In this document: positions 9,753 through 35,816 of the stretch, piece after piece
Layout: the number at the start of each line of letters is the position of its first letter
How positions within the stretch are numbered: the first letter of the stretch is position 1
DNA from: a virus
Length of the DNA stretch: 36,507 nt
IMG/VR virus record: IMGVR_UViG_3300018080_000077
Location: 1-36,507 of that record
Strand: one strand, 5' to 3'
The notes under the pieces: generated by a model
The model's database searches: none
Told to the model about the DNA's origin: nothing
What the model saw: only the letters and a program-made list of their open reading frames with translations
Position numbers and translations under genes: made by a program

Positions 9753-10130
9753 CTATTTAATTTTAATTATTTCTCTTTCTGTTAACACATCCTCTAAATC
9801 AAGGATTTCGCATCTCGCACATTTTTTGTGACAACAATCAGTTTCTTTATTTACACATTCTAATTCGTTTTCGAAATTCATGTAATGTCCGCAATGACAG
9901 CACTTCCAAAACATAAACTTACATCCTGCAAAGTATTTGTTTTTTGAAAATAATACTAATCTAAGAGGTATTTTTCTTTTATTAAATTTAAAAAAAATAC
10001 CGTTTTTCTTAATATTAATCTTTGATCCAGGAACTTCAACAAGATTGTTTAAGTCTAGATTAGTGTTTCCATTAAATCCAAAACAACTAAAAGACACGAT
10101 TATAAAAAAAACAAAAAGAAGTTTCTTCAT
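9753..10130 (-). CDS. Secreted Cys-rich protein, family member A
   Basis: Signal peptide MKKLLFVFFIIVSFSCFG. C-terminal WKCCHCG-x10-C-x6-CCHKKCARC. The ATG overlaps the upstream TGA (ATGA). Confidence 0.7.
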   Translation of the reverse strand: MKKLLFVFFIIVSFSCFGFNGNTNLDLNNLVEVPGSKINIKKNGIFFKFNKRKIPLRLVLFSKNKYFAGCKFMFWKCCHCGHYMNFENELECVNKETDCCHKKCARCEILDLEDVLTEREIIKIK

Positions 10131-10312
10131 TTTCTGTTCTCCTCTATCTTAAGTAATCTTTCATGAAAATCTCTTGATTCTTGATACCACATTTCTCTAA
10201 ATTGTTTAAATTCTTGGTCGGTCTGTCTCCAGTCGTTTCTTGATTCTGTTCTAAACCAGATAATCAACCCAGCATTAGCTAGAAATAAAAATAATACTTG
10301 CAGCCATTCCAC
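10127..10312 (-). CDS. Small single-pass membrane protein, paralog of 9225..9476
   Basis: GTG start overlaps the upstream TAG (TAGTG). MEWLQVLFLFLANAGLIIWFRTESRNDW...SRDFHERLLKIEENRK. Confidence 0.65.
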   Translation of the reverse strand: MEWLQVLFLFLANAGLIIWFRTESRNDWRQTDQEFKQFREMWYQESRDFHERLLKIEENRK

Positions 10313-10746
10313 TATTTTACCCCAACGTTATAATAATCAGTGCTTTTCCTTCCTTTGTACACCTGTATAAGCTTACAATTTCTACAACATTTGTGAGTAC
10401 ATTGTGTTTCTTGAATATTATCAGGAAGTTCAAATCCATTTTGACAATATTGGTCATAATCAACTTCAGTTAACCACCCACACTGACAACACTCCCAATA
10501 ATAATCAAATTTATTTTTAACACTTTCTAATGGAATTTTATAAAGTTTAGCTAAAAGACCTTCTTCGAAAAAAAATAAAATCCCGTCTTTTGTTTCTTGG
10601 CAGCAGCAAATATCTCCCTCGTCAGATTCTTTAATGAGTAAATTAAATTCATCTACTGTAGAGTTATCAAAGAACATAATTTCTTTTGCCTGAAGAAAGC
10701 AAAAAGAGCTTAAGAAAATGATGAACGATAAAACCAACTTTTTCAT
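10312..10746 (-). CDS. Secreted Cys-rich protein, family member B
   Basis: 144 aa from the ATG at 10746 with GGAGG SD. Signal peptide MKKLVLSFIIFLSSFCFLQA. WECCQCG-x10-C-x14-CTHKCCRNC. Confidence 0.7.
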   Translation of the reverse strand: MKKLVLSFIIFLSSFCFLQAKEIMFFDNSTVDEFNLLIKESDEGDICCCQETKDGILFFFEEGLLAKLYKIPLESVKNKFDYYWECCQCGWLTEVDYDQYCQNGFELPDNIQETQCTHKCCRNCKLIQVYKGRKSTDYYNVGVK

Positions 10747-10781
10747 AAAATAGCCTCCATTTTCAGTAATTATCATTGTTA

Positions 10782-10824: not shown

Positions 10825-11064
10825 TTACTTAGAATCCATCTGTTTTCTACCCCAAACGACTATTCCGTTCATTGTTATTAATAGATATGCGGCGAACAGC
10901 ACTCCCTGGGATATTTCTCCAATAGCTAAATTATATGTTAGAAGGTATGTGTTTGTGATAATCCAAACAAAGAATCCATAAATGTTTTGTTTTGAATTTA
11001 AAAATGCTCCGTATAAAGCTAGAAAAACAACTAGCCAATTACAAATCCAAAAAAACCCGCTCAA
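10825..11064 (-). CDS. 3-TM membrane protein resembling a single PnuC (NMN_transporter) repeat
   Basis: No usable ATG. TTG at 11064 lies 7 nt after AAGGAG (11072..11077). ...SKQNIYGFFVWIITNTYLLTYNL...AAYLLITMNGIVVWGRK aligns by eye to the last three helices of H. influenzae PnuC (RKYVENWLLWVIINVISVV...FIALNGSRMW). Confidence 0.5.
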   Translation of the reverse strand: MSGFFWICNWLVVFLALYGAFLNSKQNIYGFFVWIITNTYLLTYNLAIGEISQGVLFAAYLLITMNGIVVWGRKQMDSK

Positions 11065-11578
11065 AATCAATCTCCTTGTTGAATATTTGTGACGTAAAAA
11101 CTTCTTTGTAGTAATTTACATCTATATGTGAAAAAAAATCTTCAAATAATTTGTCGATGGAGTTTTGGAAAATATCTTCACAATCTCGCACTCCATCTGA
11201 GATTAAAGGCATGTCAGGACGCACAAAAAAGAAATAGTCATAACTTTCAAGCCATTCTTCGGATGCTATTCTAAAATGATTTATTGGATTTTTTTTTAGT
11301 CTGAAAAAATCAGCATAAATAAATGTGTCAAAACAACTTCTATCACAAATAATAGTTGTATAACCCTGTTGTCGTGCTGTTAATTCTTTGTTTATTTGGC
11401 TAGTAAAGGCCCATATCGCTGTGTTTTCACTCATTTCATCATTTATTGGAAAACAAGATTCCCTCACTCTTTCGTGAATCACATATACGTTTTGTGCATT
11501 TCTTTTATAATATTCAGCGATTTGATATGTTAATGTACTTTTTCCGGCGCCATGCGTCCCACAACATGCTATTTTCAT
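11039..11578 (-). CDS. AAA_28-family P-loop protein (NadR-type ribosylnicotinamide kinase-like)
   Basis: Walker A CCGTHGAGKSTL, Walker B-like TTIICDRS, and YDYFFFVRPDMPLISDGVRDCEDIF, matching the AAA_28/NadR kinase pattern (yDlvfll.pd.pwv.DGvR). Confidence 0.7.
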   Translation of the reverse strand: MKIACCGTHGAGKSTLTYQIAEYYKRNAQNVYVIHERVRESCFPINDEMSENTAIWAFTSQINKELTARQQGYTTIICDRSCFDTFIYADFFRLKKNPINHFRIASEEWLESYDYFFFVRPDMPLISDGVRDCEDIFQNSIDKLFEDFFSHIDVNYYKEVFTSQIFNKEIDFERVFLDL

Positions 11579-11715
11579 TTTTTTTGCGCAGTAATGTCTT
11601 GTTGTGTATGAGCCTCTAATTGATATCCATATACGTCAGCCTCTAAGTCGCTATCATAATGGAAGCCACATCCACTTAAAACAGATAAAAGAACTATTAA
11701 ACAAAATTTCTTCAT
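11575..11715 (-). CDS. Mini-lipoprotein (46 aa), absent from the ORF track
   Basis: My translation: MKKFCLIVLLSVLSGCGFHYDSDLEADVYGYQLEAHTQQDITAQKK. Classic lipobox LSGC. The start overlaps the upstream TAA (TAATG) and the stop overlaps the kinase ATG (ATGA). Confidence 0.55.
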   Translation of the reverse strand: MKKFCLIVLLSVLSGCGFHYDSDLEADVYGYQLEAHTQQDITAQKK

Positions 11716-11903
11716 TACCCATACCTCTTATTTTTTTCTGGTGTAGATGGAGTTAAATCAACATCCCATCCAGTTTGGTTTTCTATTTGCTTTTCCAAAA
11801 GCTCCTCAGCAAAGTTGTCGTCTTTTAAACCAAGTTTATTATTTACTAAACTACATCCGCAAAAACAAACTGTAATAAAAAATAATGCTATTAATATTTT
11901 CAT
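11715..11903 (-). CDS. Small lipoprotein (62 aa)
   Basis: Start re-set to the ATG at 11903 with GGAG SD. MKILIALFFITVCFCGCSLVNN... has a signal peptide and a lipobox-like FCGC. The longer track ORF would overlap the upstream gene by 89 nt. Confidence 0.5.
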   Translation of the reverse strand: MKILIALFFITVCFCGCSLVNNKLGLKDDNFAEELLEKQIENQTGWDVDLTPSTPEKNKRYG

Positions 11904-11925
11904 TGCATTTCTCCATAAAAAATTC

Positions 11926-12183
11926 TTAAATGCTTGGTCTTTGTATAGAACAGACCAAAGTTTTTCTTTCGCCTTCATTTTTACACGCATCCCATTCAGA
12001 TATATAACGATCAATCTCTAATTGACAAAAGTCTATCTTAGAGTTGTCATTATCAATGTTTTTTTTCTCTCCAATTTTCTTTGTATATGATTCTGGTTTT
12101 ATATATCTAGTCCATTTGTATATAGAATTAATTGCAGAAATAAAATCATCTCTATTTTTTATCGGATCAAACATTCGAATCAT
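11926..12183 (-). CDS. Hypothetical protein just downstream of a tail-fibre gene (possible fibre chaperone)
   Basis: 85 aa. ATG 2 nt after the fibre stop, with a GGAGG SD inside the fibre 3' end. Confidence 0.5.
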   Translation of the reverse strand: MIRMFDPIKNRDDFISAINSIYKWTRYIKPESYTKKIGEKKNIDNDNSKIDFCQLEIDRYISEWDACKNEGERKTLVCSIQRPSI

Positions 12184-35745: not shown

Positions 35746-35816
35746 AGCGTCTGATCAGAATAGAACCGACACTAATAGCTTGGAAGGCTATTGTTCTACC
35801 ATTAAACTACAGGTGC
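35746..35816 (-). tRNA. tRNA-Gly (anticodon UCC), no encoded CCA, two acceptor-stem mismatches
   Basis: Minus strand: GCACCTG-TA-GTTT-AATGGTA-GAAC-A-ATAGC-CTTCCAA-GCTAT-TAGT-GTCGG-TTCTATT-CTGAT-CAGACGC-T. Invariants T8, A14, G18G19, A21, T33, A37, G53, T54T55C56, A58 and C61 are present. 3:70 is A.C and 4:69 is C.A. Confidence 0.7.

Follow-up and report, generated by a model that had tools for sequence, protein, structure and literature searches.

Can a membrane protein of 79 amino acids (aa), no longer than one three-helix repeat, work with an adjoining kinase to bring a vitamin-like molecule into a bacterium and keep it there? The question is raised by two overlapping genes in IMG/VR record IMGVR_UViG_3300018080_000077, a viral DNA of 36,507 nucleotides (nt) that is called the window here. 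A sequence-only reading of this DNA had described the pair as a phage-borne NadR-type kinase coupled to a one-repeat mini-PnuC and had proposed a role in the salvage of nicotinamide riboside (NR). By sequence comparison, the 79-aa open reading frame (ORF) encodes a true single Pnu-transporter repeat standing on its own (semi-Pnu, or mini-Pnu), homologous to the C-terminal three-helix bundle of PnuC. Its upstream neighbor is predicted to be a small-molecule kinase with the fold shared by thymidylate kinases (TMPK), deoxynucleoside kinases (dNK), and ribosylnicotinamide kinases (RNK), with a substrate that is not readable from the sequence. On balance, we favor the view that the two genes form an accessory uptake-and-trap module of a temperate phage.

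Both genes lie on the minus strand where the sequence-only reading had placed them (Table 1). The TTG start, the AAGGAG Shine-Dalgarno (SD) sequence, and the 26-nt overlap that it described are found in the DNA. So are the motifs it quoted: GAGKST, IICDRS, and DGVRDCEDIF in the kinase (in their wider context GTHGAGKST, TIICDRS, and SDGVRDCEDIF), and WIITNT and TMNGIVVW. Two TTG codons are in frame in the small ORF and would give proteins of 81 aa (from 11070) and 79 aa (from 11064). The 79-aa form is favored because AAGGAG stands 7 nt from the TTG at 11064 and only 1 nt from that at 11070, and the JGI gene call is this same 79-aa gene (P0001). The 26-nt overlap implies that the kinase and semi-Pnu are translationally coupled. 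Overlaps of 4-32 nt, or short gaps, occur again in the related loci L001-L006, L012, L016, L018, L020, and L021. Scanned for promoters and terminators, the DNA has fewer promoter-like sites than shuffled controls, and the module contains no terminator. The GC content of the module is 31%, in a window that ranges from 30 to 43%, and the composition of the region is unremarkable.

To what family the small protein belongs became apparent from profile searches. An exhaustive phmmer search of 1.84 billion proteins with the mini protein returned 284 cluster representatives at E<=1e-3. The family is mostly 69-100 aa in size, with 111 of the 150 best matches listed measuring 60-99 aa. An alignment of 124 members (A1) served as the basis of a family profile and of all conservation counts, and 114 of the 124 match Pfam NMN_transporter at E<=0.01 (best E 1.2e-13). 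When the family profile was searched against the Protein Data Bank (PDB), the sole significant match was PnuC 4QTN (E 3.7e-6), in which it recognizes both repeats (residues 155-236, 24 bits; residues 40-123, 11 bits). Using hhalign, the mini family aligned to three full-length PnuCs, one from E. coli and two from phages, with a probability of 96.9% (E 2e-10) over 75 columns corresponding to transmembrane helices (TM) 5-7. The aligned span of E. coli PnuC is residues 160-234, reproducing an alignment to the final PnuC repeat that the sequence-only reading had made by eye. The resemblance goes well past anything that chance would produce. Word-indexed homology searching with the mini protein matched only the protein itself; tblastn with the window protein gave no match, and with the family consensus only weak ones (E>=6e-3).

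The structure predicted by AlphaFold2 (AF2) for the 79-aa protein has helices at residues 3-24, 29-47, and 51-78, with a predicted local distance difference test (pLDDT) score of 95.4. Against predicted viral structures, Foldseek matched this model at a probability of 1.0 to other phage proteins of 68-100 aa and to one repeat of full-length phage PnuCs. The model fits a repeat of the phiM12 PnuC with a TMq of 0.82 and a root-mean-square deviation of 1.0 Å, and one of the VanLee PnuC with a TMq of 0.69. The protein thus consists of three helices, where the Pnu core has seven, two three-helix bundles being joined by TM4. It is not a fragment, because short length is the norm in its family and the kinase gene occupies the sequence upstream.

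Conservation in the mini family is highest at the positions of the ligand motif and gate residues that experiments on PnuC and PnuT have established, namely WxxW(x)3D/N, an external-gate Tyr, and an internal-gate Trp (PMC5749112). All 124 members have W34. At position 38, 112 members have N and 10 have D; the Pnu motif in general has D or N here, with Asp in PnuT (PMC5749112). In place of the Trp with which the motif begins in Pnu proteins, 107 members have F and 13 have Y (position 31), and PnuT retained binding when this Trp was changed to Phe (PMC5749112). G19 and G67 are each found in 122 of the 124, W71 in 102, and Y60 in 96 with F in another 18. The F31xxW34xxxN38 region aligns with QWALWIVVN of 4QTN, and Y60...G67...W71 of helix 3 with MYVMYLCNSVYGYINW of the same protein. 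The gate Tyr and Trp match the corresponding PnuC residues in both repeats. The charges of the mini protein, with Lys in loop 1, Glu in loop 2, and an RK-rich C-terminal tail, fit a likely N-out/C-in topology, the same orientation as that of the PnuC repeat.

Several variants of the small protein were encountered. Similar small three-helix structures from large eukaryotic DNA viruses were matched in BFVD (Q9EN45 from entomopoxvirus AMV001, 80 aa; W8W1N3 from iridovirus IIV30, 101 aa), one of which bears the name NMN transporter. Some mini-Pnu units have C-terminal soluble extensions of 80-190 aa (P0024, P0044, P0087, and L033:3480-4259, which is gp68 of Arthrobacter phage CastorTray). The 208-aa protein P0137 (L008:3001-3627, also in L009-L011) is a four-TM unit duplicated in tandem, a short TM and a three-TM mini-Pnu following one another twice, with both halves matching the mini-Pnu hidden Markov model (HMM). 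It forms a singleton cluster and its gene adjoins a helicase and a PAS histidine kinase/response regulator. P0137 looks like an independent semi-to-full fusion whose 4+4 layout is the one from which PnuC has been proposed to originate, and, as far as its sequence can tell, this natural tandem duplicate would be showing that two mini units can work within one polypeptide. A search for further tandem-duplicated relatives of P0137 found none.

We surveyed how commonly the two genes occur together. All seven close relatives (L001-L006 and L012) have the mini ORF either overlapping the kinase gene or directly behind it. In L001-L006, where the kinases are 54-99% identical, the mini ORF overlaps the 3' end of the kinase gene; L012 has a 37%-identical kinase with an overlapping, uncalled mini ORF (L012:3546-3749). 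Scanning IMG/VR with the kinase alignment yielded 18 loci with kinases 27-45% identical. In 15 of the 18, a same-strand mini-Pnu ORF follows the kinase at up to about 1.3 kb, in most cases overlapping it or lying no more than about 100 nt away. Small ORFs or an RNA ligase separate the two in two IMG/VR lineages, and in L013 the mini gene is two genes upstream of the kinase. Among five contexts sampled from mini proteins, one (L035) has the kinase immediately upstream while the other four are without it. In cultured phages, the kinase has relatives in Bacillus phage G (gp293) and the Campylobacter CP220 group, none with a mini-Pnu nearby, and a scan of GTDB genomes with the kinase recovered only distant relatives in metagenome-assembled genomes, none with a mini-Pnu. 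This kinase subfamily is therefore almost always paired with semi-Pnu, and semi-Pnu genes also occur alone. We regard the pairing as the strongest of the new findings. Pnu genes are typically co-localized with a substrate-trapping kinase, and transport followed by trapping through phosphorylation is the established Pnu mechanism (PMC5749112), so that a Pnu transporter paired with a kinase is the classical arrangement for metabolic trapping. This is in keeping with the sequence-only reading, which had pointed to pnuC-nadR as a classical bacterial gene pair for taking up and phosphorylating NR.

The mini-Pnu ORF was left uncalled by the source gene callers in L002, L003, L004, L005/L006, and L012, where the family HMM matches it at E 1e-28 to 1e-35. 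The family is systematically under-annotated. Distant kinases adjoin RNA ligases (PF09414, PF09511), a dCMP deaminase, and a DUF4406/nucleoside-deoxyribosyltransferase-like protein (L024:3542-4252, L029:3503-4558, L028:3597-4049, and L013:728-1102). Such neighbors hint at nucleotide or RNA-repair contexts.

The 179-aa kinase belongs to Pfam AAA_28, as the sequence-only reading had it, with 54.2 bits (E 2.6e-14) against a gathering cut-off (GA) of 27. AAA_28 is the best Pfam family for all 20 kinases of the subfamily; Thymidylate_kin is matched by seven and dNK by two, with well lower scores. G7, H9, G12, K13, and T15 are invariant across these 20, as are D79 and R80 of the C-D-R-S motif and D128 and R131 of the DGxR motif. 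The likewise invariant E36...Q61...D79-R80-S layout appears similar to that of textbook dNKs, with their catalytic Glu, base-binding Gln, and ERS motif. The AF2 model of the kinase has a pLDDT of 86.7. In a single-sequence search of the PDB, the best match was the RNK domain of Bas30_86 from NARP3 (9X6F, E 9e-4). The match covers residues 174-313, the RNK part only, and the kinase matches positions 165-305 of TIGR01526 with 26 bits, compared with a cut-off of 341. NARP3, described in 2026, is a phage system (Bas30_86/87) comprising a NadR-like NMNAT+RNK enzyme and a PnuC-type NR transporter, and it restores NAD+ against Sir2-HerA (PMC13464706).

How might so small a protein transport? Two copies of semi-Pnu would probably assemble in parallel into a six-helix bundle resembling TM1-3 plus TM5-7 of PnuC, and because the second bundle and TM4 are missing, the functional unit would have to be a homodimer. 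With a [F]xxW(x)3N ligand motif, a gate Tyr, and a gate Trp supplied by each protomer, the dimer would provide a uniport path along which an unphosphorylated riboside-type molecule diffuses down its gradient. In the cytoplasm, the co-translated AAA_28 kinase would phosphorylate the imported molecule, which would be trapped with no exit. Imported NR would be converted by the kinase to nicotinamide mononucleotide (NMN) and by host enzymes to NAD+, and this supply would aid the phage when NAD+ is limiting or has been depleted by defense systems. We put NR forward tentatively as the leading candidate for the substrate because the two proteins belong to the Pnu and AAA_28 families, the ligand motif is of the N type, and NARP3 offers a precedent.

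Several observations weigh against this reading or its NR part. The window protein by itself reaches only 14.7 bits against NMN_transporter (GA 27.3, E 0.031), over the last 62 positions of the model, precisely the part to which the sequence-only reading had aligned it; the match to the PnuC profile holds at the level of the family but falls below threshold for the single sequence. Foldseek of the mini model against the PDB returned generic helical bundles with no PnuC in the top 50, although this result is uninformative because three-helix bundles are generic. A symmetric dimer has two ligand motifs where PnuC has one, and the binding mode and substrate may therefore differ. An NMNAT domain is absent from the kinase and was not detected in the other ORFs of the window that were scanned (about 40 against PHROGs, eight of those against Pfam), so the module could make NMN at most. 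The IICDRS motif that had been taken for a NadR hallmark is not one: NadR-like enzymes have FVDTN, VSDTE, or IHDTD at this position, that is DT(D/N/E), whereas CDRS aligns with IIFDRT of the deoxyadenosine kinase (dAK) 2JAS and VILDRF of the TMPK 2PBR, and the invariant D-R in place of the NadR D-T is of the dNK/TMPK type. A profile of the 20 kinases searched against the PDB scored highest with the Mycoplasma mycoides deoxyadenosine/deoxyguanosine kinase (dAK/dGK) 2JAS (33.8 bits) and the Aquifex aeolicus TMPK 2PBR (29.4 bits), and lower with the NadR-type proteins Bas30_86 (27.2 bits), Lactococcus lactis NadR (19.2 bits), and Haemophilus influenzae NadR (17.9 bits). Foldseek of the kinase model likewise listed TMPKs first (E 7.8e-7, TMq 0.73) and then dAK, with NadR entries at ranks 43-48, though at similar TM-scores. 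In addition, many mini-Pnu genes are without a neighboring kinase and lie among nucleotide-metabolism or replication genes. Gp70 of phage FortCran, a mini-Pnu, is between dCMP deaminase/SSB and ThyX, and the L007 mini-Pnu is near a dNMP kinase.

Taken together, the profile, Foldseek, TIGR01526, and D-R motif results place the kinase no closer to the NadR RNK than to other nucleoside and nucleotide kinases. Of the earlier proposal of NR salvage, the Pnu and AAA_28 homology and the gene linkage stand, while NR is a candidate only, the kinase being about equally close to dNK, TMPK, and NadR-RNK. A (deoxy)nucleoside is a serious alternative because the kinase has dNK/TMPK-like features and related genes have genes of nucleotide metabolism as neighbors. 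The same semi-Pnu and trapping kinase would then handle a nucleoside, a deoxynucleoside, or another vitamin and would scavenge DNA precursors. This variant lies within the uptake-and-trap reading, and we hold it less likely than NR, at a minor share of the probability. The slight preference of the kinase profile for dAK/dGK and TMPK, the Foldseek order, the seemingly dNK-like E36...Q61...D79-R80-S layout, and the best PHROG for the kinase, annotated as thymidylate kinase, all speak for it, as do the dCMP deaminase, DUF4406/nucleoside-deoxyribosyltransferase-like protein, dNMP kinase, ThyX, and SSB among the neighbors of related kinases and mini-Pnus. However, Pfam puts all 20 kinases in AAA_28 well above Thymidylate_kin or dNK, and the DGxR LID motif is common with NadR RNK domains. 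At the N/D position of the ligand motif N predominates, in agreement with 4QTN, the one PnuC aligned residue by residue. Characterized Pnu transporters, moreover, carry NR, thiamine, or riboflavin rather than nucleosides (PMC5749112).

Three explanations depart from uptake and trapping altogether. Class I holins have three TMs, an N-out/C-in orientation, and a basic C-terminal tail, and the mini protein can be likened to them. Instead of a transporter it might be a holin of this type or another lysis or membrane-perturbing protein, an anchor or regulator of the kinase, or a decoy by which Pnu or other membrane proteins of the host are poisoned, as might happen in superinfection exclusion. Just after the tail-fiber genes, the module has genes for small lipoproteins and for a single-TM protein of 61 aa as neighbors, and no endolysin, holin, or other lysis gene was recognized among the scanned window ORFs. 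The sole hint of a lysis link is a Phage_lysozyme gene (E 3.7e-37; L016:2528-2968, also in L015 and L030) directly upstream of the kinase; this adjacency is confined to the L015/L016/L030 lineage, in which the kinase lies between the lysozyme gene and mini-Pnu. We consider a non-transporter role improbable, since the mini protein is homologous to a transporter repeat with the exact ligand and gate residues kept, has a kinase and not an endolysin as its conserved partner in more than 20 loci, and matches no holin PHROG or Pfam family. Its homologues in lytic actinophages sit in early or nucleotide-metabolism regions.

Much less probable again is that the kinase is a polynucleotide 5'-kinase or another nucleic-acid P-loop enzyme serving RNA repair with RNA ligases, its linkage to a membrane protein being incidental, in an anti-defense island. 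RNA ligases do immediately follow distant kinases of the family (PF09414 in L024-L027, PF09511 in L029), and Metallophos and HAD_PNKP genes are downstream in L012. However, neither an RNA ligase nor a phosphatase is present among the scanned ORFs of the window, and the window kinase matches AAA_28 far better than AAA_33 (E 0.045), the family of T4-Pnk-type polynucleotide kinases. The reading-frame overlap with mini-Pnu is also conserved over deep divergence, which argues for a joint function. It is hardly credible that a full-length pnuC has decayed and left the 79-aa ORF as an untranslated remnant. The TTG start of the ORF and the failure of gene callers to report it in several relatives would be consistent with decay, but at least 284 clusters have like short length with functional residues conserved, the SD is good, and relatives keep 50-59% aa identity in the mini protein while their DNA has diverged. 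No trace of a first repeat is present upstream, where the kinase gene fills the sequence.

If the uptake-and-trap reading is right, the closest known system is NARP3. Like the window, it has a phage-borne, adjacent, and co-oriented pair of a Pnu-family membrane protein and an AAA_28/RNK-type kinase, and the idea of a phage restoring NAD+ with PnuC and NadR, raised in the sequence-only reading, has since been published and is not new (PMC13464706). The window pair differs from NARP3 in its membrane protein, one three-TM repeat of 79 aa compared with a roughly 24-kDa multi-helix trimeric transporter; in its 179-aa enzyme, which is kinase-only, lacks NMNAT and helix-turn-helix domains, and has D-R in place of the NadR D-T; and in its gene order, with the kinase preceding the transporter. 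Overlapping full-length pnuC-nadR pairs are seen in other phages. As phage pnuC genes and pnuC-nadR pairs are already known, what is new here is the minimal single-repeat, kinase-only form. It is possible, though we think it rather doubtful, that a homodimeric half-transporter with an RNK-only kinase is the smallest known uptake-and-trap system, a minimal NARP3-like module, common among uncultured temperate phages, boosting NAD+ or nucleotide precursors against NAD+-depleting immunity.

Relative to PnuC, PnuT, and PnuX (TC 4.B.1, PF04973; 4QTN), the window protein is homologous to the TM5-7 bundle and has a similar motif, gates, and kinase pairing, but is without the second bundle and TM4 and has Phe/Tyr for the first Trp of the motif. 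Short ORFs of 71-101 aa are already labeled PnuC or PnuC-like in UniProt/BFVD, SEA-PHAGES genomes, and IMG, including those of Gordonia phages FortCran and Avazak, Mycobacterium phage Shrimp, uncultured Caudovirales entries, and IMG gene names. They are of the same size class and fold as the window protein and have annotation labels only; FortCran gp70, the one locus inspected, lacks the adjacent kinase found in the window. The half-size PnuC that the sequence-only reading had thought novel is thus not new as a label, although in the searchable literature we found no paper characterizing a half-size Pnu protein or a kinase-semi-Pnu module, and semiPnu only as a hypothetical ancestor. The accessible portion of the Saier-lab PnuC repeat analysis makes no mention of natural half-size members.

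The proposed semi-Pnu also resembles SemiSWEET, in that each would be a free-standing triple-helix bundle dimerizing in parallel as a uniporter, with fused 3+1+3 relatives. SemiSWEET pockets likewise use Trp/Asn pairs. No relationship was detected, with no MtN3/PQ-loop match in Pfam, no PDB profile match besides PnuC, and Foldseek of the mini model against SemiSWEETs 4RNG and 4X5N not significant (E 2.8-3.2). Full-length PnuC is thought to have arisen through duplication of a three- or four-TM unit, and shared ancestry with SWEET/SemiSWEET is disputed (PMC7162841, PMC7176098). To account for the relationship between PnuC and SWEET, a three-TM PnuC protodomain, semiPnu, has been postulated (Jaehme et al. 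2015, as cited in PMC7162841). As described there, semiPnu is a thought construct; the mini family has the same architecture but is extant and mostly viral. The family may be ancestral, but an origin from full-length PnuC through reduction is just as plausible.

The window represents a temperate phage genome that is nearly complete, with genes for terminase, portal, major head, tail, and tail-fiber proteins and an integrase, as well as for Erf and RecE-like recombination proteins, RusA, a ParB-like protein, and replication initiators. The module is in an accessory region between the tail fibers and the integrase, among small lipoproteins (Table 1), for which a superinfection-exclusion or spanin-like role is possible. 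Two lipoproteins of 47-48 aa are at the equivalent place in L005. The two Cys-rich proteins near the module share the pattern CC.CG...C..C...HK.C.R.C, and neither has a Pfam or PHROG match. No GenBank phage matched the region in megablast, and GTDB genomes held no close relative.

Table 1. Positions in the window of the kinase-semi-Pnu module, its sequence motifs, and other features.
Feature	Position	Strand	Remarks
Kinase gene	11039..11578	-	ATG start, 179 aa; P-loop small-molecule kinase, Pfam AAA_28 (NadR-RNK/Ttd14), predicted TMPK/dNK/RNK-type fold
Semi-Pnu gene	10825..11064	-	TTG start, 79 aa, three TM; stop codon 10825-10827
SD sequence AAGGAG	11072..11077	-	Within 3' end of kinase gene, 7 nt 5' of TTG 11064; read directly from the sequence
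Kinase/semi-Pnu overlap	11039..11064	-	26 nt
Walker A/P-loop, G7-T-H-G-A-G-K-S-T15	11534..11560	-	From kinase translation
C78-D79-R80-S81	11336..11347	-	After strand 3 (Walker-B Asp + Arg); resembles dNK ERS, TMPK DRY
D128-G-V-R131, LID-type motif	11186..11197	-	Common to NadR RNK domains (DDGLR, QDGTR)
F31-x-x-W34-x-x-x-N38, helix 2	10951..10974	-	Counterpart of Pnu ligand-binding motif WxxW(x)3D/N
Y60...G67...W71, helix 3	10852..10887	-	Y60 equivalent to Pnu external-gate Tyr, W71 to internal-gate Trp; cytoplasmic end of TM3/TM7
Secreted Cys-rich protein, paralogue 1	9753-10130	-	Signal peptide; between module and integrase
Single-TM protein	10127-10312		61 aa; between the Cys-rich paralogues
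Secreted Cys-rich protein, paralogue 2	10312-10776	-	Signal peptide; between module and integrase
Lipoprotein	11575-11715	-	46 aa, LSGC lipobox; overlaps kinase start by 4 nt
Second small lipoprotein-like ORF	11715-12014	-	Upstream of 46-aa lipoprotein
tRNA-Gly	35746-35816	-	Anticodon TCC; single tRNA, near terminase end

For genome annotation, these results mean that a small overlapping ORF has been overlooked by gene callers in several relatives. A 79-aa transporter with a 179-aa kinase would, if the uptake-and-trap reading is true, also be a compact part for engineered uptake of vitamins or nucleosides. An abundant, natural, free-standing Pnu repeat makes the question of PnuC/SWEET ancestry testable. 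For the phages themselves, the uptake-and-trap reading would extend the logic of NARP3, the import and conversion of an NAD+ precursor, to a far smaller kinase-only module carried by many uncultured temperate phages, or alternatively would reveal a nucleoside-scavenging variant of it.

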